From an uncultured Veillonella sp. (GTDB taxonomy: Bacteria > Bacillota > Negativicutes > Veillonellales > Veillonellaceae): 64,000 bases of DNA. The stretch is taken from contig CAAEOZ010000090.1 of NCBI GenBank assembly GCA_900757715.1, positions 2,740 to 66,739 on the forward strand. The letters run 5' to 3'. A program made the translations under genes and the position numbers. This document shows, piece after piece, positions 27,019-62,105 of the stretch (the first letter of the stretch is position 1; every line of letters begins with the position of its first letter). The notes under the pieces were generated by a model that saw only the letters and a program-made list of their open reading frames with translations, did no database searches and was not told the origin of the DNA.

Positions 27019-27075
27019 AGGCACGTTCTCACGAGTGTAGTATACTTATACTAATGAGAACGTGCTTATTGTTGT
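27019..27075 (+). promoter_or_regulatory. leader hairpin with a conserved loop (tagtatacttatactaat) 15 nt upstream of the RBS of paralog 1
   Basis: 5' arm gcacgttctca pairs with 3' arm tgagaacgtgc, then cttattgttgttt and RBS gagagg. Compare 30731..30790. Confidence 0.5.
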
Positions 27076-27089
27076 TTGAGAGGTGTTAT

Positions 27090-28313
27090 ATGAAATTAAA
27101 AAGTATATTGTTGGGATTGGCTGTAGCGCTAGCTTTTACCATGCCTATTTATGCGGCGCAGTATACTGTTCCTGAAGGGCAACCACCTGTGCCAGGGGCT
27201 GATGCAAGTATTCCAGATAATGCGTATCAGAACTATCGTTATGGTGATATTCGTAAAGCGCCTAATTTTGAAATACAAGAGGTACTTAAGCTTAGATATA
27301 AAGAGATAGATGAGCTTGTTCGTAATCGCAAGATAAGTGTAGAAGATGCAGAAGCACTTAAGAAAGTAAATGTTAAGTATATGGATTTGACTTCTCATGA
27401 TTCTACGGTCATACTACTACATGAAGATGGCTTTAATGCTAAGATGACGGCACCTATTAGAGCTGTAACTGGGATATTTACTCCTTTAAAGTCTGATGGT
27501 ATTACGTCTTTTGCTGTAGACCGTTATGCACTTGCATCGCTTTCAGGTACTATAGTAACAACTGAGGACAACTATAATGAAAATAGCGAATTGCGTAAAG
27601 GTATGTTTATTTATCCTGGTTTTAAATCGGCCTATTGGAGCATAAGTGATGAATCAGTAAGAAATGATAGTCCTATGATTTTAGCTTATGTTACATTTGA
27701 TAGTGATTCTAATCGACATTATATTGTTGGATTAAGTAAATTTCACCAACCAAATGTAAAGGAACTAGAAACAGAAATGGCTAATGTCGTGATTCCCTCT
27801 ATCCAGCTGTTAGATGAATTAGCACGTATTAGTAATCTTGTTAAATGGGATAATATTACGTATCGCTTGCCTAAAGGGATGATGTTGAAAGCGGAAGAAA
27901 AGGTTGATTCTGAGTATAGTAGGCGAGTATATTATGGTCAAGGGTTAGAGTTAGTTATTGATAGAGGTCCTATTGTACATGATGATAGTGCAATGAGTGG
28001 ATACTTTAATCGTATTTTTGCGGATTACCTCTATGGTTCTTCATCACCTTTATTACGAGATATACCAATTCAATCGGCCATAGTCTGGAATAACGGTGTA
28101 CCTACATATCTTATGGATCAACATAATCCAGGTAAACAATCACATATATTCCAATTAATACAAGACAATCAGTATGAATATGATATGCATCTTACCTATG
28201 AGGATGGAAAGGCAAAATATAATCATATTGAACTACGCAATATAATGGAATATTTAGATTTTAAAAATGCTAAAGAGTTAAGAAGAAAAGCAGAAATAAA
28301 GACAAAGAAATAA
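27090..28313 (+). CDS. secreted protein, paralog family member 1 (unknown function)
   Basis: Signal peptide MKLKSILLGLAVALAFTMPIYA. Motifs VPEGQPPVPGADASIPDNAYQNYRY, VIPSIQLL, WDNITYRLPK, VWNNGVP and LRNIMEYLDF are shared with the 30808 and 33709c products. Confidence 0.75.
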   Translation: MKLKSILLGLAVALAFTMPIYAAQYTVPEGQPPVPGADASIPDNAYQNYRYGDIRKAPNFEIQEVLKLRYKEIDELVRNRKISVEDAEALKKVNVKYMDLTSHDSTVILLHEDGFNAKMTAPIRAVTGIFTPLKSDGITSFAVDRYALASLSGTIVTTEDNYNENSELRKGMFIYPGFKSAYWSISDESVRNDSPMILAYVTFDSDSNRHYIVGLSKFHQPNVKELETEMANVVIPSIQLLDELARISNLVKWDNITYRLPKGMMLKAEEKVDSEYSRRVYYGQGLELVIDRGPIVHDDSAMSGYFNRIFADYLYGSSSPLLRDIPIQSAIVWNNGVPTYLMDQHNPGKQSHIFQLIQDNQYEYDMHLTYEDGKAKYNHIELRNIMEYLDFKNAKELRRKAEIKTKK

Positions 28314-28329
28314 GCAAAAGAAATACATA

Positions 28330-28358
28330 AAAGGCCGTACCTTTTGGTACGGTCTTTG
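28330..28358. terminator. terminator hairpin
   Basis: aaaggccgtacc ttttg gtacggtcttt, with A/T runs on both sides. Confidence 0.55.
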
Positions 28359-28395
28359 CTACATTTATCTATATATTCCTATTATTCGTTCCTTA

Positions 28396-28424
28396 TTGTA
28401 TCGTATATTAGTTCGTTCTATAAT
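28396..28424 (+). promoter_or_regulatory. sigma-70-type promoter for the small toxin-like ORF (-35 ttgtat, 17-bp spacer, -10 tataat)
   Basis: Consensus-like -10 tataat at 28419-28424. Conserved in copy 3 (32621-32649). Confidence 0.5.
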
Positions 28425-28485
28425 AGACTTAGGATAGTTAGATGAGGTTGGGCCTCTCTTCGTCATCGAAGGGAGGGATAAGCCT

Positions 28486-28587
28486 ATGAGTGATTATGAA
28501 ATAATCATGCTCTTATTACAGGTAATAACGGTTGTTATTGCCTTTGGGGCATTAATAGCGCTTATTTGTCTCACAAAAGACAAATAG
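28486..28587 (+). CDS. 33-aa hydrophobic peptide, type I toxin-like (resembles Fst/holin-like-toxin small membrane peptides)
   Basis: MSDYEIIMLLLQVITVVIAFGALIALICLTKDK: one TM helix with a charged C-terminus. The SD gggagg is buried in the 5'-UTR hairpin cctctcttcg/cgaagggagg (28453-28476). Confidence 0.55.
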   Translation: MSDYEIIMLLLQVITVVIAFGALIALICLTKDK

Positions 28588-28687
28588 CCCTCCGTTGCCT
28601 AGTGTAACTAGATAACTGAAAGGCCATTTCCTAATCTTTTTTTTCAATTTCGAGATGCGCCTGACGTTTCGACTCGTCTGACTATCT
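28560..28687 (-). ncRNA. putative cis-antisense RNA (type I antitoxin candidate); 5' end inferred, 3' end unknown
   Basis: Minus-strand promoter: -35 TTGACG (28717-28722 revcomp), 17-bp spacer, -10 TATAAT (28694-28699 revcomp). It points into the 3' end of the peptide ORF and is conserved in all three copies. Confidence 0.4.
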
Positions 28688-28878
28688 TCTTATATTATAG
28701 TAAGGTTATTATATATCGTCAAATTATGATGAACACGTGTATGGCATACAGTTTGATGAGGGTATTGTAAAATGAGAAAACTCCTATTGGCTTTCACCGA
28801 TAGGAGTTTTTGGTTTTATAATTGTAATTTTATAGTACTTTTAGGCCTATTATTAAGTCACAGATTATAACAAACTAA

Positions 28879-30297: not shown

Positions 30298-30457
30298 ATG
30301 ACACCTCCAAAAATTTACACTATCTAGAGATTCATACTAAATCACCCTTACTACTTGCGGTGCATATATCAAGTATAGTTTAATTATCCATAAAAACTGG
30401 GGAAAATACAAAGAGGAGTTTTATTGCTTGTTGGAGAATATATATACATTGGGAATA

Positions 30458-30485
30458 AAAAAGCCCGTTATTAACGGGATTTTTG
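30458..30485. terminator. small bidirectional terminator hairpin (gcccgtta/taacgggat)
   Basis: aaaaagcccgtta ttaacggg atttttg. On the minus strand it would terminate the copy-2 antisense transcript. Confidence 0.5.
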
Positions 30486-30526
30486 GGGCATTAATAGCAC
30501 TTATTTGTCTCATAAAAGACAAATAG
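30483..30526 (+). pseudogene. 5'-truncated remnant of the type I toxin-like peptide ORF (copy 2)
   Basis: Only ...FGALIALICLIKDK* remains (tttggggcattaatagcacttatttgtctcataaaagacaaatag). The promoter, SD and N-terminus are missing. Confidence 0.5.
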
Positions 30527-30624
30527 CCCTTCGTTATCTTAGATGATTCGATAACTGAAAGGCCATTTCTCAAGATTTTCTGTTTTTAGAGATGCGCCTG
30601 ACGTTACGACTCGTCTGACTATCT
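30500..30624 (-). ncRNA. putative cis-antisense RNA, copy 2 (downstream conserved element retained)
   Basis: Minus-strand -35 TTGACG (30654-30659), 17-bp spacer, -10 TATAAT (30631-30636). The conserved block gatgcgcctgacgt...actcgtctgactatct is present. Confidence 0.4.
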
Positions 30625-30730
30625 ACCTATATTATAGGGATAAAGATTTATATCGTCAAATTGAGATGAACCTCATATATTAAATAGAAACAAACCTCAT
30701 GCATAGTGAAATATAAAGTTATAAATAATA

Positions 30731-30790
30731 GGCACAATCTTATTTGCATAGTATACTTATGCTAATAAGATTGTGCTTATTTATGTTGTA
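30731..30790 (+). promoter_or_regulatory. leader hairpin with the same conserved loop (tagtatacttatgctaat) upstream of paralog 2; arms covary relative to copy 1
   Basis: 5' arm gcacaatcttatt pairs with 3' arm aataagattgtgc, then cttatttatgttg and RBS gagaggg. Confidence 0.5.
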
Positions 30791-30807: not shown

Positions 30808-32067
30808 ATGTTACGTAAAAGTTTCCTACTGATGACAGCGATAGCTGCTTTCACCATGAATGCAAGCGCTGTGCAGATCGAAGTGCCAAAAGGGCAACCA
30901 CCTGTGCCTGGAGCGGATGCAAGTATTCCTGCTAATGCGTATGAGAATTATCGTCATGTTAATGAGGTAGCGGAGAAAAAAGCAGAGTCATATAGTCAAT
31001 TTGTAAAATCAAAACCTACAAATCCTCCATCTGCCTTTGATAAGCTGAATTTGGAACACCCTGGTTTTGCTAAGGCTTTGGAGCTTGCAGATTATTCGCA
31101 GTCTACAGTGGTATTGATTCATGAAGGAAATAAAAATATCAGGCTATCTGTACCAAATGTCAGCTTTCGCGGTGATGTTGTAGAGTCTCCATCTGGAAAA
31201 GAAGGTCCTTTTTTTGCTATTAGAAGCTTAAGTACATTTTTGGTAGTAGGCCCGCCTCATGGTAAAGCACTTGATGCATATTCTGAAAGTAAAGGAAAAT
31301 ATATGTATCCAGAATTAAGGAATGCATCTTGGAAGTTTATGTCGAACAGTGCTCGTGTGATGTATACGGAATTCACACCGAATGATACAAAAACTGCCTA
31401 TGGCATTACCTATGGTGGTTGGGTAAATACGGAAGATCCGTACCAAGATCAAGCACCTGAAGTGGTAATGAGTAATTATATCATTCCGTCCATAGAATCC
31501 TTAGCTGGATTAGATAACTATAGTCAGATTGAGCATTGGGACAATTTTAACTATCGTATTCCTAAGACGGCTAAGCTTGTGAGTGTATCTGTAGAAAATG
31601 AGATACATGAGGTGAGAACCTATGAGGATACAGGGGTTAAAATACGGGTAATACGTAGCGCAATCAGGAGTAAAGAGACAGATAACACGCTGATTAAGGT
31701 TCCAATAATATATTATTTACATAAATATAATGATTTGGAGACACCTACACAGTACGCCGTAGTGTGGAATAACGGAATTCCTGGTTCTTTAGTTGATGAC
31801 TATAAACCCAATCGTGAATCCTATCTTCGTCATGTTATGAAAGATTCTGTATACTATTACAGTTATCGCATTAATTATGATGAAAGTAAAACGTCTTATA
31901 CACATAAACAGCTAAGAGATATGATTGAATATGTGGGATTTGATGATGCGGCAAGATTACGAAAAGAGCCACAATGCCGAGAGAAAGGGTCATATAAGGA
32001 GAGACTCGAAAATAGCCCAGTATTTATCCCTTGGTATATGGAATGGGTTAAACTGTTGACTCAATAG
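30808..32067 (+). CDS. secreted protein, paralog family member 2
   Basis: Signal peptide MLRKSFLLMTAIAAFTMNASA, then VPKGQPPVPGADASIPANAYENYRH, IIPSIESL, WDNFNYRIPK, VVWNNGIPGSLVDD and LRDMIEYVGF. Confidence 0.75.
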   Translation: MLRKSFLLMTAIAAFTMNASAVQIEVPKGQPPVPGADASIPANAYENYRHVNEVAEKKAESYSQFVKSKPTNPPSAFDKLNLEHPGFAKALELADYSQSTVVLIHEGNKNIRLSVPNVSFRGDVVESPSGKEGPFFAIRSLSTFLVVGPPHGKALDAYSESKGKYMYPELRNASWKFMSNSARVMYTEFTPNDTKTAYGITYGGWVNTEDPYQDQAPEVVMSNYIIPSIESLAGLDNYSQIEHWDNFNYRIPKTAKLVSVSVENEIHEVRTYEDTGVKIRVIRSAIRSKETDNTLIKVPIIYYLHKYNDLETPTQYAVVWNNGIPGSLVDDYKPNRESYLRHVMKDSVYYYSYRINYDESKTSYTHKQLRDMIEYVGFDDAARLRKEPQCREKGSYKERLENSPVFIPWYMEWVKLLTQ

Positions 32068-32517: not shown

Positions 32518-32620
32518 ACTTCTATCAAATGTTAAATAGACTAAAAAGCCGAGCTACTATGTTGATTAAGTAGCTCGGCTTTTATTAGTTTATTCATATA
32601 TTTATATAATATGGTTTTTA

Positions 32621-32649
32621 TTGTATCGTATATTAGTTTGCTCTATAAT
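32621..32649 (+). promoter_or_regulatory. promoter of toxin-like ORF copy 3 (-35 ttgtat, 17-bp spacer, -10 tataat)
   Basis: Same sequence context as copy 1 (tattgtatcgtatattagtt.g.tctataatagacttaggatagt). Confidence 0.5.
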
Positions 32650-32708
32650 AGACTTAGGATAGTCAGACGAGGTTGGGCTTCTCTTCGTTTTTGAAGGGAG
32701 GGGTGCTT

Positions 32709-32837
32709 ATGAGTGGGTATAAAATTATTATGGTTATCCTTGGGATTTTATCAGTCATGATATCCTTTGGAGCACTTGTGGCGCTTATTTGTCTAGAAAT
32801 AGCAAAATGGCCCTTCGTTTCTTCGGAAATTAGATAA
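32709..32837 (+). CDS. 42-aa hydrophobic peptide, type I toxin-like (copy 3; C-terminally extended because the ancestral stop is lost)
   Basis: MSGYKIIMVILGILSVMISFGALVALICLEIAKWPFVSSEIR. Where copy 1 has tag, this copy reads tgg. The SD is sequestered by cttctcttc/gaagggagg (32678-32701). Confidence 0.5.
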   Translation: MSGYKIIMVILGILSVMISFGALVALICLEIAKWPFVSSEIR

Positions 32838-32908
32838 AACGAAAAGGCCATTTCTACATATTATTAGTTTGTGAGATGAGCCTGACGTCACTACTCGTCT
32901 GACTATCT
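32800..32908 (-). ncRNA. putative cis-antisense RNA, copy 3
   Basis: Minus-strand -35 TTGACG (32938-32943), 17-bp spacer, -10 TATAAT (32915-32920). Hairpin aaatggcccttcgtt/aacgaaaaggccattt at 32810-32858. Confidence 0.4.
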
Positions 32909-32966
32909 ACCTATATTATAGGGGTAAAGATTTATATCGTCAAATTGAGATAAACTGGAGGTCCTT

Positions 32967-39144: not shown

Positions 39145-39214
39145 GAACGGACCTATCTCTAAAAGCCTCCATAGCGAGCTAAGTCATTTTTAGAGATAGG
39201 TCCGTTCCTTTTTT
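39145..39214. repeat. hairpin repeat copy C (21-bp perfect arms; conserved loop gcctccatagcgagctaagtca)
   Basis: ggaacggacctatctctaaaa [loop] ttttagagataggtccgttcc plus tttttt. Confidence 0.75.
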
Positions 39215-39243
39215 ATACAATTTATGAAATTAGAGCAACAACC

Positions 39244-39296
39244 GGGGGCTATAGGGAGGCTAAGTCATTTTTAGAGATAGGGGCTTTTCCTTTTAT
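39244..39296. repeat. degenerate hairpin repeat copy D (5' arm largely lost)
   Basis: ...ggggctatagggaggctaagtca tttttagagataggggcttttcc. Confidence 0.55.
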
Positions 39297-39317
39297 ATGA
39301 AATTAGTATCTTCAAAT

Positions 39318-39380
39318 AGGACCTATTAAAATAACCTCCATAGCGAGCTAAGTCGTTTTTAGGGACCTGTTCTTTCTTGT
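39318..39380. repeat. hairpin repeat copy E (imperfect arms; loop acctccatagcgagctaagtcg)
   Basis: aggacctattaaaataa [loop] tttttagggacctgttc. Confidence 0.6.
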
Positions 39381-39706
39381 TTTCAATAAAGAAATTAGAG
39401 CTCACGACTAGGATCTCTTTTACGGTTAAGATATTTTTCATTTATCAAAAATTTTGATTTGTATATAACTTATATATTTTGTATAATATTAACACAATAG
39501 ATATACCCCTATGGGTAATATAAAATTTAGAATAGAAACAAAAGGTACTCCAGATCGGTAGTTGATTACTGTTAGGTTAATATTAGTACGATATTAACAC
39601 AAGATTAGTGTCATATTGCATGGGTGTACCTTACTATTTAACAAATTGTTTTGTATTTTATTTCCGGATTAAGTAAGGCCGGTATCTCATTTATAGAGAG
39701 GTCTAT

Positions 39707-59062: not shown

Positions 59063-59282
59063 AGGTTCTCCTTTCACTATAACACGTATATACGTGTTAT
59101 ACAATGGATAGGCGTATAGTTTATTCATTTGTAGTCTAGCATCGTTTGTATCATTATAGTGGTGACTATTGGTCACCTATGTTCCTATTAGTCACTTGAC
59201 AATATAGTTTTGTATAATGAATAGCATGAATTGAATAAATAGGGATAAGAGGTAAATTAAATAAGTGTAATATTAGTGTGTA

Positions 59283-59325
59283 AAAAAGCTGTATCAAATG
59301 GTAATGTCATTTGATACAGCTTTTT
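59283..59325. terminator. bidirectional terminator hairpin (repeat copy 1 of agctgtatcaaatg..atgtcatttgatacagct)
   Basis: aaaaagctgtatcaaatg gtaatgtc atttgatacagcttttt. A near-identical copy is at 60721..60765. Confidence 0.75.
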
Positions 59326-59335
59326 GTATAGCTAA

Positions 59336-59686
59336 TTATTTCGTTTGCTTTGGTTGATTGGACATGGTGTATATGGCAAGTGCTATCCAAATACAGGAGA
59401 AGGCAATGATGTTTGGTATATCAAAGCTTTCTTCAAAATAGAAAATAGATAGTAAAAATATAATTGTAGGAGCTAAATATTGAAGAAAGCCTAGTAGGTT
59501 GAGTGGTAATAGTTGAGCTCCGTAGGAGAAAAGGATAAAAGGAACTGCTGTAGTTAAACCACAGCCCATGAGGAGCAAAGCAGTGTACCAGTCTGTGCTA
59601 AAATAAGACCAAGAGGTAGTATCGAAGACAGTTGTGTATAGCAAGGCTAGCGGTGTTAAGAGCCAAGCTTCAACGGCACCTAGCAC
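59336..59686 (-). pseudogene. rarD (EamA-family) C-terminal fragment; diverged partial duplicate of 60786..61682
   Basis: ...EAWLLTPLALLYTTVFDTTSWSYFSTDWYTALLLMGCGLTTAVPFILFSYGAQLLPLNLLGFLQYLAPTIIFLLSIFYFEESF... aligns residue for residue with the C-terminal 115 aa of the full-length gene. No N-terminal half. Confidence 0.65.
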
Positions 59687-60720: not shown

Positions 60721-60765
60721 AAAAGAAAGCTGTATCAAATGAGAATGTCATTTGATACAGCTTTT
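60721..60765. terminator. bidirectional terminator hairpin (repeat copy 2)
   Basis: aaagaaagctgtatcaaatg agaatgtc atttgatacagcttttt. Confidence 0.75.
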
Positions 60766-60785
60766 TAGTTGATATACGATATATC

Positions 60786-61682
60786 TTACTTTTTTAGGCT
60801 AATGCGCGTTGTAATTTGGCTTGATAAGGAGAATAATACTAAGGCTATCCAGATACAACCGAAGGCGATCATTTGTGGTGTGCCAAAGCTTTCACCAAAG
60901 TAAAAGATGGCTAGCAACAAGGCAATGGTAGGGGATACATATTGCAGGAAGCCTAGTAGGTTGAGCGGCAATAGTTGCGCACCATAGGAGAATAGCACCA
61001 ATGGAACAGATGTAGTTAGACCGCAGGCTATGAGCAGCATGGAGGTATACCAGTCTGTGCCGAAATAAGACCACACTGTATTATCGATCATGGTCGTATA
61101 TAGTAAGGCTAGCGGTGTTAATAGCCAGGCCTCAAAGGCGATGCTCGTAAAGGGAGAGATGAGTAGTTTCTTTTTTACGGCCCCATAAAGACCGAAGGAA
61201 ACGGCGAGGATCATCGATACTAACGGCAAGGATCCTACTTGATAGGTGAGTAAGGCGATGCCGATGGTAGCGATGAGGACACTCAGCTTTTTCGGTATAG
61301 ATAGAACCTCTTTAAATAGGATGACACCTAATACTACATTGAAGAGTGGGTTGATGTAATAGCCAAGGCTCGTGTTCATAACTTGATTATTGGCGATGGC
61401 CCAAATGTAGGTGAACCAGTTTACGCTGATGATGACTGCCGCAACTAAAAGTAGGAATAGTTGTGAACGTTGTTCTTTTAGTAATTGAAAGTCCTTTTTG
61501 AATTGTTTAAAATGTAGGCCAAATACAACGATCGCCATGCAAATACCTGACCAGATAATGCGTTGTGCCAGTATATTATACGGTGAAACATGGTTTAATA
61601 ATGCCCAATATAGAGGGAGTAAGCCCCAAATTATATAACAACTAAGGGCTGTGATTAACCCTTTTTTACTTGTATGGTCCAT
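60786..61682 (-). CDS. rarD: RarD (EamA/DMT family) membrane protein
   Basis: MDHTSKKGLITALSCYIIWGLLPLYW..., 10 TM, two EamA halves. RBS gaggagg. The ORF-track start at 61703 is less likely. Confidence 0.8.
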   Translation of the reverse strand: MDHTSKKGLITALSCYIIWGLLPLYWALLNHVSPYNILAQRIIWSGICMAIVVFGLHFKQFKKDFQLLKEQRSQLFLLLVAAVIISVNWFTYIWAIANNQVMNTSLGYYINPLFNVVLGVILFKEVLSIPKKLSVLIATIGIALLTYQVGSLPLVSMILAVSFGLYGAVKKKLLISPFTSIAFEAWLLTPLALLYTTMIDNTVWSYFGTDWYTSMLLIACGLTTSVPLVLFSYGAQLLPLNLLGFLQYVSPTIALLLAIFYFGESFGTPQMIAFGCIWIALVLFSLSSQITTRISLKK

Positions 61683-61883
61683 AATGCCTCCTCGTGATAG
61701 CACTTATTATATCATTAATTCTTAAATTCTTAACCCATGCATTTTAGTTATTACATATGATTTTCAGTTATAACTTTGATTTTGGCACTTATGATTAAAT
61801 GTTATGTTCATTGACTTTGTGCATATTGTTACACTATATTGGACTTAGAACAACGAATATAGAGAATAGGTGTCGTAAGACTT

Positions 61884-62012
61884 AATAGAGAAATCGGTAT
61901 AAGCCGATGCGGTCCCGCCACTGTAAGGATGAGCCTGCTTTCATATATGTCACTGGAGTAATCTGGGAAGGCGAAAGCGAGGTGATGATCCCGAGCCAGG
62001 AGAACTGCCTAT
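61884..62012 (+). promoter_or_regulatory. cobalamin (AdoCbl) riboswitch aptamer
   Basis: aatagagaaatcggtataagccgatgcggtcccgccactgtaagg matches the conserved core AATAGGGAA..GGTG.AA.TCC...GCGGTCCCGCCACTGTAA (B12 box GCCACTG). The 3' element gagccaggagaactgcc matches AGYCAGGA.ACCTGCC. Confidence 0.75.
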
Positions 62013-62105
62013 TTGATAATCACCGTTATGTACCTACGAGCGATAGGAAGGGGATTGGGGTATGCTGTCTACAGTATTTTTTAGTGTACCTTTCAATAAG
62101 AAACC

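Follow-up and report, generated by a model that had tools for sequence, protein, structure and literature searches.

Control by long-range RNA pairing has been described for bsrG/SR4 of the Bacillus subtilis prophage SPbeta, a toxin-antitoxin (TA) pair of type I (Jahn & Brantl 2013, PMC3834814). Nucleotides (nt) 1-35 of the bsrG messenger RNA (mRNA) pair with nt 232-262 in a helix called P1, the Shine-Dalgarno (SD) sequence lies within a stem, and the convergently encoded antitoxin RNA, SR4, has its complement in the 3' half of P1 (PMC3834814). SR4 binding frees the 5' arm of the bsrG mRNA, tightens the SD stem from 4 to 8 base pairs (bp) and triggers decay by ribonuclease III (RNase III) (PMC3834814). 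We analyzed a 64-kb stretch of DNA (the window) from an uncultured Veillonella sp. (contig CAAEOZ010000090.1), which contains three copies of a repeated unit, two of them full and one lacking the 5' half of an open reading frame (ORF) for a 33-residue peptide; nhmmer returned exactly these three. The feature is real and probably a type I TA module, and its design is already known from Bacillus. As in bsrG/SR4, two convergent genes have their zone of overlap at the toxin mRNA's 3' end, the ORF is enclosed by a 5'-3' helix (also called P1 here), the SD forms part of a stem, and the predicted antisense RNA has its complement in the 3' half of P1; the encoded membrane peptide is small and of the single-pass type, begins M-[ST]-x-Y-E and carries an FG motif. 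The RNA architecture of the bsrG/SR4 type (P1, SD stem and convergent antisense RNA) is thus present in Veillonella, and we put the probability that the locus is a chromosomal type I TA module of bsrG/SR4-txpA/RatA design, as judged from sequence, at roughly three in four.

Relatives of the unit were collected in two ways: a genome scan anchored on a pattern taken from the unit's 3' part, which gave more than 117 loci, and a metagenome scan anchored on the leader, SD and start codon, which gave more than 119 loci and included a more divergent clade. About 300 further copies were gathered from Veillonella genomes and metagenomes. The genome loci came nearly all from Veillonella (V. parvula, V. 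rogosae, V. atypica, V. hominis, V. infantium, V. tobetsuensis and V. dispar), many of them multicopy, and the module is found in several copies per genome and in at least seven named species. A metagenome-assembled genome labelled 'uncultured Mogibacterium sp.' (L020, CAKAFX010000001.1) carries two Veillonella module copies, which probably reflects a binning error rather than transfer between genera. Conservation drops sharply outside the unit of about 370 bp, whose edges are two inward-facing promoters. Its recurrence, conserved promoter hexamers, coding-type substitutions and strand-specific RNA helices exceed what chance would give.

Copy 1 spans about 28364-28734, with its core elements at 28396-28722: a plus-strand promoter, an SD hairpin, the 33-codon ORF and a convergent minus-strand promoter. 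These are the four parts that an earlier, sequence-only reading had proposed, and each of them was located where it had been placed. That reading began the unit at 28330, which has to be corrected, because 28330-28360 is a bidirectional terminator belonging to the upstream gene and lies outside the repeated unit. The toxin promoter (28396-28424, plus strand) has the -35 hexamer TTGTAT at 28396-28401, a 17-nt spacer and the -10 hexamer TATAAT at 28419-28424, with transcription predicted to start at about 28431. Hexamers and spacer length were as described earlier, and the promoter is conserved across copies; the description 'near-consensus' was too generous, since the -35 hexamer matches the consensus at three of six positions and only the -10 hexamer is perfect. 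A promoter-site scan of the region did not list this plus-strand promoter. Across copies its -10 is invariant and its -35 is TTGTAT or TTGATT, with variable sequence in the spacer and between the -10 and the leader.

The conserved structured part of the mRNA covers 262 nt (28431-28692, plus strand), and the copy 1 RNA has a minimum free energy (MFE) of -93.7 kcal/mol versus -61.7 +/- 4.6 for shuffled sequences (z = -7.0). P1 was first predicted by RNAalifold from 35 non-redundant copies, and pairs a 5' arm at 28433-28446 (GAUAGUUAGAUGAG; mRNA nt 3-16, 2 nt from the predicted mRNA 5' end) with a 3' arm at 28673-28686 (CUCGUCUGACUAUC), which also serves as template for the antisense RNA's first 14-15 nt. 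In 49 non-redundant sequences, 99.3% of the cells in its 14 pairs were paired, compared with 31-46% in controls with a slid partner. Three of the 14 pairs showed compensatory double changes (U.A to C.G, G.C to A.U and A.U to G.C), and five showed one-sided changes that still paired, as G.U or Watson-Crick. The pairing is a property of the plus strand, as it falls from 99.3% to 88.8% when the same positions are read as minus strand. Leader changes in the 3'-anchored set, where the search pattern fixes the 3' arm, were almost only C to U and A to G, preserving plus-strand G.U pairing, and the leader-anchored set, which is free of bias in the 3' arm, contained variant 3' arms such as CUCGCUUGGCUAUC with matching leaders. 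P1 is conserved on the plus strand, and the plus-strand transcript must therefore reach at least 28686. The likeness to bsrG/SR4 and txpA/RatA claimed in the sequence-only reading is strengthened by this helix, which is the 5'-3' clamp of the bsrG mRNA (PMC3834814) and is supported here by covariation.

The hairpin that buries the SD (28453-28476, plus strand) is formed by CCTCTCTTCG (RNA CCUCUCUUCG) at 28453-28462, a UCAU loop and CGAAGGGAGG at 28467-28476. Its 10 pairs were paired in 99.2% of cells around a variable loop, which bears out the earlier suggestion of an SD locked in a stem. In the free copy 1 mRNA the predicted probability that the SD is unpaired is 0.01, and the SD is predicted to stay paired when the region complementary to the antisense RNA is blocked; both P1 and the SD hairpin are present in the MFE and in the centroid structure of copy 1. 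Farther downstream, a hairpin in the 3' untranslated region (28594-28608; GUUGC/GUAAC in copy 1) falls within the region that forms the antisense terminator on the other strand, and three of its five pairs show compensatory changes, with many G.U pairs. A second mRNA hairpin (28621-28662; AGGCCAUUUC with GAGAUG(N)GCCU) has a variable bulge and a U-rich loop that varies in length and sequence; of its 10 pairs, eight are invariant and two depart by unpaired cells alone, which amounts to no covariation, and the hairpin is present in the centroid structure.

Three other pairings were considered and set aside. A local GACG/CGUC hairpin at 28665-28680 initially appealed, since it is in its loop that the three window copies differ from one another; it is incompatible with P1 and has an A.C mismatch in the divergent clade, whereas P1 covaries. 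An alternative pairing of AGAUGAG (28652-28658) with CUCGUCU is broken in the divergent clade. A bsrG-like SD switch, in which the leader GGGC would pair with GCCC just after the stop codon and leave the SD half open, appeared in RNAalifold output; it is unsupported because these pairs show no compensatory change (one invariant, two varying on one side) and because single-sequence folds prefer the full 10-bp SD hairpin with and without the antisense RNA.

On the opposite strand, the antitoxin promoter (28694-28722, minus strand; -35 TTGACG at 28722, 17-nt spacer, -10 TATAAT at 28694) agrees with the consensus in 11 of 12 nucleotides and was the top promoter-like site of the region in the scan. 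Its hexamers are invariant across copies and its spacer is variable, and the two convergent promoters lie about 256 nt apart. The predicted antisense small RNA (sRNA) of about 113 nt (28575-28687, minus strand) would start 7 nt downstream of the -10 with AGAUAGUCAGACGAG, which complements the P1 3' arm exactly, and consists of a 5' stem-loop (28687-28653), an A-rich linker, a terminator hairpin and a U tract. Its overlap with the toxin mRNA takes in the final ~4 codons, the stop codon and the 3' untranslated region, and it is fully complementary through the P1 3' arm. The intrinsic terminator hairpin (28582-28629, minus strand), followed by GUCUUUUGUG, lies about 105 nt beyond the predicted start and has a folding free energy of -18 to -21 kcal/mol. 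All 184 distinct variants fold as one closed hairpin despite differing apical sequences, with a mean free energy of -20.2 kcal/mol on the minus strand versus -10.8 on the plus strand; the minus strand is the more stable in 182 of the 184, and the basal stem is paired in 99.8% of cells on the minus strand versus 78.2% on the plus strand.

The consensus fold of 35 diverse copies, from which one reverse-oriented sequence with a palindromic GGCC core was excluded, gave the same order of 5' stem-loop, A-rich linker and terminator, and its 5' 35 nt are nearly invariant. The three window copies gave identical sRNA folds (z about -4.2 to -4.3). The conserved promoter, the minus-strand-specific terminator and the consistent fold therefore define a gene for an antisense RNA of about 113 nt, cis-encoded and overlapping the toxin mRNA at the level of sequence. 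The strong antisense promoter and the 100-170-nt transcript from near 28687 that the sequence-only reading had anticipated are in agreement with these predictions. In all 49 copies, pairing of the sRNA 5' end with the 3' arm of P1 gives a duplex of greater stability than P1 itself (-26.7 versus -22.9 kcal/mol). In five loci (L054, L125, L165, L167 and L212) we observed apparent overlapping sRNA-type matches on opposite strands, or long sRNA regions of 143-149 nt; at least one of these cases is an artefact of the palindromic GGCC core.

The ORF itself (28486-28587, plus strand; MSDYEIIMLLLQVITVVIAFGALIALICLTKDK) encodes a 33-residue membrane peptide of the single-pass type, whose acidic N-terminus is followed by 24 hydrophobic residues and a KDK tail. 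In the genome scan, 84 of 85 full copies had exactly 33 codons. Entropy at the three codon positions in these full copies was 0.57/0.20/0.83, the second position being almost invariant, and pN/pS was 0.33. Judged by these substitution patterns the ORF is under purifying selection at the protein level and is a real gene. At least three peptide subfamilies were distinguished, which have in common an MS(D/G)(Y/F) start, a stretch of hydrophobic residues, a core (FGAL.ALICL) that never varies and a short tail bearing charges. Public records leave the peptides unannotated or list them as 'hypothetical' or 'uncharacterised' proteins (e.g., Vpar_1794), and a protein search with the 42-residue product of copy 3 matched close Veillonella relatives without names and nothing else.

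How the two genes are lost was also informative. An intact ORF is absent from 38 of the 123 distinct copies in the 3'-anchored set, with more than 20 distinct junction positions, and the minus-strand promoter is kept in all 38. These losses comprise 5' deletions that abut different upstream terminators and internal deletions that retain the plus-strand promoter; no junction falls within the sRNA gene, and all are upstream of its terminator, in a set whose 3' search pattern covers the first third of the sRNA only. By our estimate, the chance that about 22 events would all spare the 76 nt holding the terminator is about 2e-4 if breakpoints are spread evenly over the 236 nt upstream of the part covered by that pattern. 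The reverse, an ORF kept with the sRNA region lost, was seen in six of the 107 copies of the leader-anchored set, representing four events, and about five more copies carry frameshifts. Of the two outcomes, an ORF lost beside a retained sRNA gene is therefore by far the commoner in the sequences collected, which is the pattern expected of a toxin and its antidote.

From these elements the following mechanism can be proposed. The promoter with a weak -35 and a perfect -10 would transcribe the toxin mRNA from about 28431, P1 would clamp the mRNA ends around the coding region and the SD would sit in its 10-bp hairpin, so that the full-length mRNA should be stable and poorly translated. The stronger convergent promoter would produce the sRNA of about 113 nt, from about 28687 to about 28575. 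By analogy with bsrG/SR4 and txpA/RatA, the sRNA may displace the mRNA leader from P1, and the resulting duplex of about 113 bp may be cut by RNase III, leading to decay of the mRNA while the SD stays buried; convergent transcription may add interference. If the sRNA level fell, the 33-residue membrane peptide would be made and, again by analogy, would harm the cell. In this scheme the sequences themselves establish the two promoters, the constraint on the ORF, P1, the SD hairpin, the sRNA terminator and the selective keeping of the sRNA gene; transcription, the effects on decay and translation, and toxicity are what we infer. A broader proposal, which we regard as tentative and rather doubtful, is that copies with the sRNA gene alone, such as copy 2, work as trans-acting antitoxins, and that the family forms a genome-wide, cross-protecting network whose main action is to pry open the mRNA clamp by strand displacement rather than to block the ribosome-binding site. 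Cross-protection on this scale is suggested because the 5' end of the sRNA imitates the leader of the mRNA itself, and the copy 2 sRNA matches the copy 1 target at 38 of its first 40 nt. If true, such a network could set a threshold responsive to copy loss or phage attack in a major genus of human commensals.

Several observations weigh against assignment of the locus to a type I TA module of this design. In the predictions the SD stays buried whether or not the sRNA is present, so that the SR4-type switch in SD pairing is not reproduced. A terminator scan found no mRNA terminator within the conserved unit, and the unit does not define the mRNA 3' end; the next plus-strand terminator downstream of copy 1 is at 28776-28811, and a plus-strand terminator-like site occurs within 300 nt downstream in 164 of 176 full copies (median about 104 nt). 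Four independent deletions retain the ORF while losing the sRNA gene, and such copies need either sRNAs supplied in trans by other copies or an mRNA whose activity depends on P1. In one or the other data set the search patterns themselves held the 3' arm of P1 and parts of the SD hairpin constant, and the covariation evidence rests on the leader-based metagenome set. Family models also fall short. Copy 1 scored 22.4 bits against the Rfam model of BsrG (RF01412), below the threshold of 55 (E = 0.024 in a 4.7-kb search), and copy 3 gave no match; the copy 1 alignment spans the full model mostly via the SD/AUG and A/U-rich stretches with P1 misplaced, and we took it as a lead only and not as identification. 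The copy 1 peptide scored 12.5 bits against Pfam PF16935 (Hol_Tox), below the gathering cutoff of 23.3 (E = 0.14).

Toxicity of the peptide is a prediction here, and the peptide might instead be a small and harmless protein of the membrane, serving as a regulator or as one subunit of a complex there, whose level is merely tuned by the antisense RNA. The six of 107 copies with an ORF and no sRNA would be easy to understand if so, a permanently buried SD might keep output low and harmless, and some wider Hol_Tox-like members score weakly against ComI, a competence inhibitor and no classic toxin. We nevertheless consider this improbable, since more than 20 independent ORF deletions spared the sRNA gene against four opposite events, the module is multicopy with a layered translation block (P1 and the SD hairpin) that is usual for type I toxins, and the peptides have a distant link to the TxpA/BsrG toxins. 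Very improbable, in our judgment, is the converse arrangement, in which the minus-strand sRNA is the functional gene, acting in trans on other targets, and the plus-strand ORF is a decaying passenger. Persistence of the sRNA gene alone at many loci and the near invariance of its 5' 35 nt would suit such a role; purifying selection on an ORF of fixed 33-codon length, together with plus-strand-specific helices (P1 and the SD hairpin) maintained by compensatory changes, is not expected for a passenger.

Finally, we asked what could be said for a non-functional dispersed repeat resembling a miniature inverted-repeat transposable element, with accidental promoters and hairpins. Such a repeat might be multicopy and adjoin terminators of unrelated genes, as the unit does, and the two ends of the unit are alike in inverted orientation (promoter plus GATAGTCAGACGAG). 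The inverted similarity is accounted for by P1, because the C to U and A to G changes in the leader keep G.U pairing in the RNA. Substitutions of coding type, different helices conserved on each strand and promoter hexamers conserved around variable spacers all speak against an inert repeat; no target-site duplication was seen at the unit, and searches of plasmid and phage collections found nothing similar to it. We give this explanation hardly any credence, and the type I TA module remains the reading that we prefer.

The sequence-only reading had the whole unit recur twice more in the window, which is true of one further copy. Copy 3 (unit 32589-32955, elements 32621-32943) is complete, with a plus-strand promoter at 32621-32649, an ORF at 32709-32837, an sRNA from 32908 to about 32796 and a minus-strand promoter at 32915-32943. 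Its stop codon is mutated from TAG to TGG, which extends the product to 42 residues (32805-32837), the sole such case among the 85 full copies; the same base change also converts a G.U pair to G.C in the antisense terminator stem. Copy 2 is a remnant (30482-30671) that has kept the ORF 3' end and the antisense gene, other sequence having taken the place of the toxin promoter, the SD and the ORF's N-terminal half; the sRNA gene (30512-30659, minus strand) has its promoter at 30631-30659 and would give an sRNA from 30624 to about 30512. The remnant ORF in the 30413-30526 region has a TTG start at 30428, MLENIYTLGIKKPVINGIFGALIALICLIKDK, and an SD-like AGAGGAG of its own. The deletion junction falls on a bidirectional terminator hairpin at 30465-30480, which would shield a symporter gene from sRNA read-through.

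The neighbors of the module in the window are ordinary chromosomal genes, encoding transporters, a flavin reductase and uncharacterised secreted proteins, and not the lysis cassette of a phage or prophage in which a holin would lie; the plasmid and phage collections gave no match. Near-perfect hairpins of about 50 nt at 27019-27076 and 30730-30787 (plus strand) lie directly upstream of two paralogous secreted-protein genes (27093-28313 and 30808-32067), to which no Pfam family corresponds. The stems differ by compensatory changes (GCACGUUCUCA/UGAGAACGUGC versus GCACAAUCUUAU/AUAAGAUUGUGC), with folding free energies of about -29 kcal/mol (z -5.5 and -6.8), and the hairpin may act as an operator or represent a conserved structure in the 5' leader. 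The same element also stands after ORF-only module copies in four loci (L174, L180, L183 and L191). Elsewhere in the window we observed a cobalamin riboswitch at 61851-62026 (plus strand; Rfam RF00174, 102.6 bits), three copies of a 54-nt repeat at 39161-39383 (plus strand; AAAAGCCTCCATAGCGAGCTAAGTCATTTTTAGAGATAGG...) with spacings of 81 and 88 nt, and a direct repeat of about 300 nt (59282-59653 and 60723-61115, 74% identity), each copy of which is preceded by a 44-nt perfect hairpin, AAAAAAGCTGTATCAAATG...CATTTGATACAGCTTTTT.

Veillonella, one of the diderm Firmicutes (Negativicutes), ranks among the genera found in greatest abundance in the human mouth and gut. The module described here is a small gene pair that genome annotation currently misses, and its toxin-less and antitoxin-less variants form a natural series for study. 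If the peptide is toxic, it could be used as a counter-selection tool, or the module as a regulatory RNA device, in V. parvula genetics. No type I TA system of Veillonella or Negativicutes was found in the searchable literature, nor was a study of Veillonella transcription start sites or sRNAs. The main text of the survey by Fozo et al. (2010, PMC2887945), as distinct from its ~2000 unnamed candidates, does not mention Veillonella.

In hok/sok and aapA1/isoA1, type I systems of Gram-negative bacteria, the primary mRNA is likewise locked and untranslatable through a long-distance 5'-3' interaction and SD sequestration; however, the antisense RNA there targets the 5' region or translation start, activation requires 3' trimming and no sequence similarity was found, whereas the Veillonella antisense RNA covers the mRNA 3' end. 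The Fst/Ldr (par-type) class, which the sequence-only reading had named next to TxpA, did not hold up: there was no NCBIfam match at E <= 10 and no Fst family among the Pfam matches, and the 5' repeats through which RNA I and RNA II of that class interact are direct, whereas the Veillonella 14-mer repeat is inverted and forms an intramolecular helix. The same reading's proposal of a TxpA-like toxin was sustained as a distant link to Hol_Tox (TxpA/BsrG) and not as direct membership. Two other Veillonella subfamilies scored 14.3 and 11.3 bits against Hol_Tox, a third gave no match and the best Veillonella-like variant (P0028) reached 21.2 bits; BsrG and TxpA scored 34.5 and 31.3 bits, both above the cutoff. 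When a profile built from the Veillonella peptides was run against 1.84 billion proteins, it matched P0062, P0065, P0066, P0067 and P0068 (E = 1.9e-4 to 8.4e-4), each of which passes the Hol_Tox cutoff on its own, and collinear relatives such as MTDYEMIMVVLGILGLLISFGVLIVALFTFLDKKDKK were retrieved at E ~2e-4 to 1e-3. The long-form Hol_Tox members P0067, P0068 and P0069, from metagenome and NCBI contigs, were retrieved at E = 6e-4 to 1e-3 and scored 32.4, 24.8 and 19.6 bits against Hol_Tox (P0069 below the cutoff); they share about 27 collinear residues with the Veillonella peptides (M[ST]DYE[IM]IM..LG....ISFG.L) and differ in their longer, more basic tails (KKDKK or KRKRKRK). This profile link rests on short hydrophobic sequences, and is plausible rather than strong.

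The txpA/RatA system of the B. subtilis skin element also has a convergent antisense RNA overlapping the 3' end, and TxpA is one of the 'holin-like toxins' of Hol_Tox, with which the Veillonella peptides have a distant link; the system differs in that TxpA has 59 residues with a long C-terminal tail and RatA has no sequence-level match to the Veillonella sRNA. Relative to bsrG/SR4, the Veillonella peptide, with 33 residues, has seven extra residues between YE and FG compared with the Hol_Tox model, and the sRNA is about 113 nt long instead of about 180 nt. The Veillonella sRNA starts exactly at the P1 3' arm, whereas an SR4-type start lies beyond the mRNA terminator, and the conserved unit is without an mRNA terminator; the SD helix is already 10 bp long without the antitoxin; and the module is chromosomal and multicopy rather than prophage-borne, in a diderm host. 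The sub-threshold scores and the profile link therefore suggest a distant relative of the TxpA/BsrG systems rather than a certified member of Hol_Tox, and the covariation-backed RNA model makes the Veillonella module a ready test case for the bsrG/SR4 mechanism outside the Bacilli.

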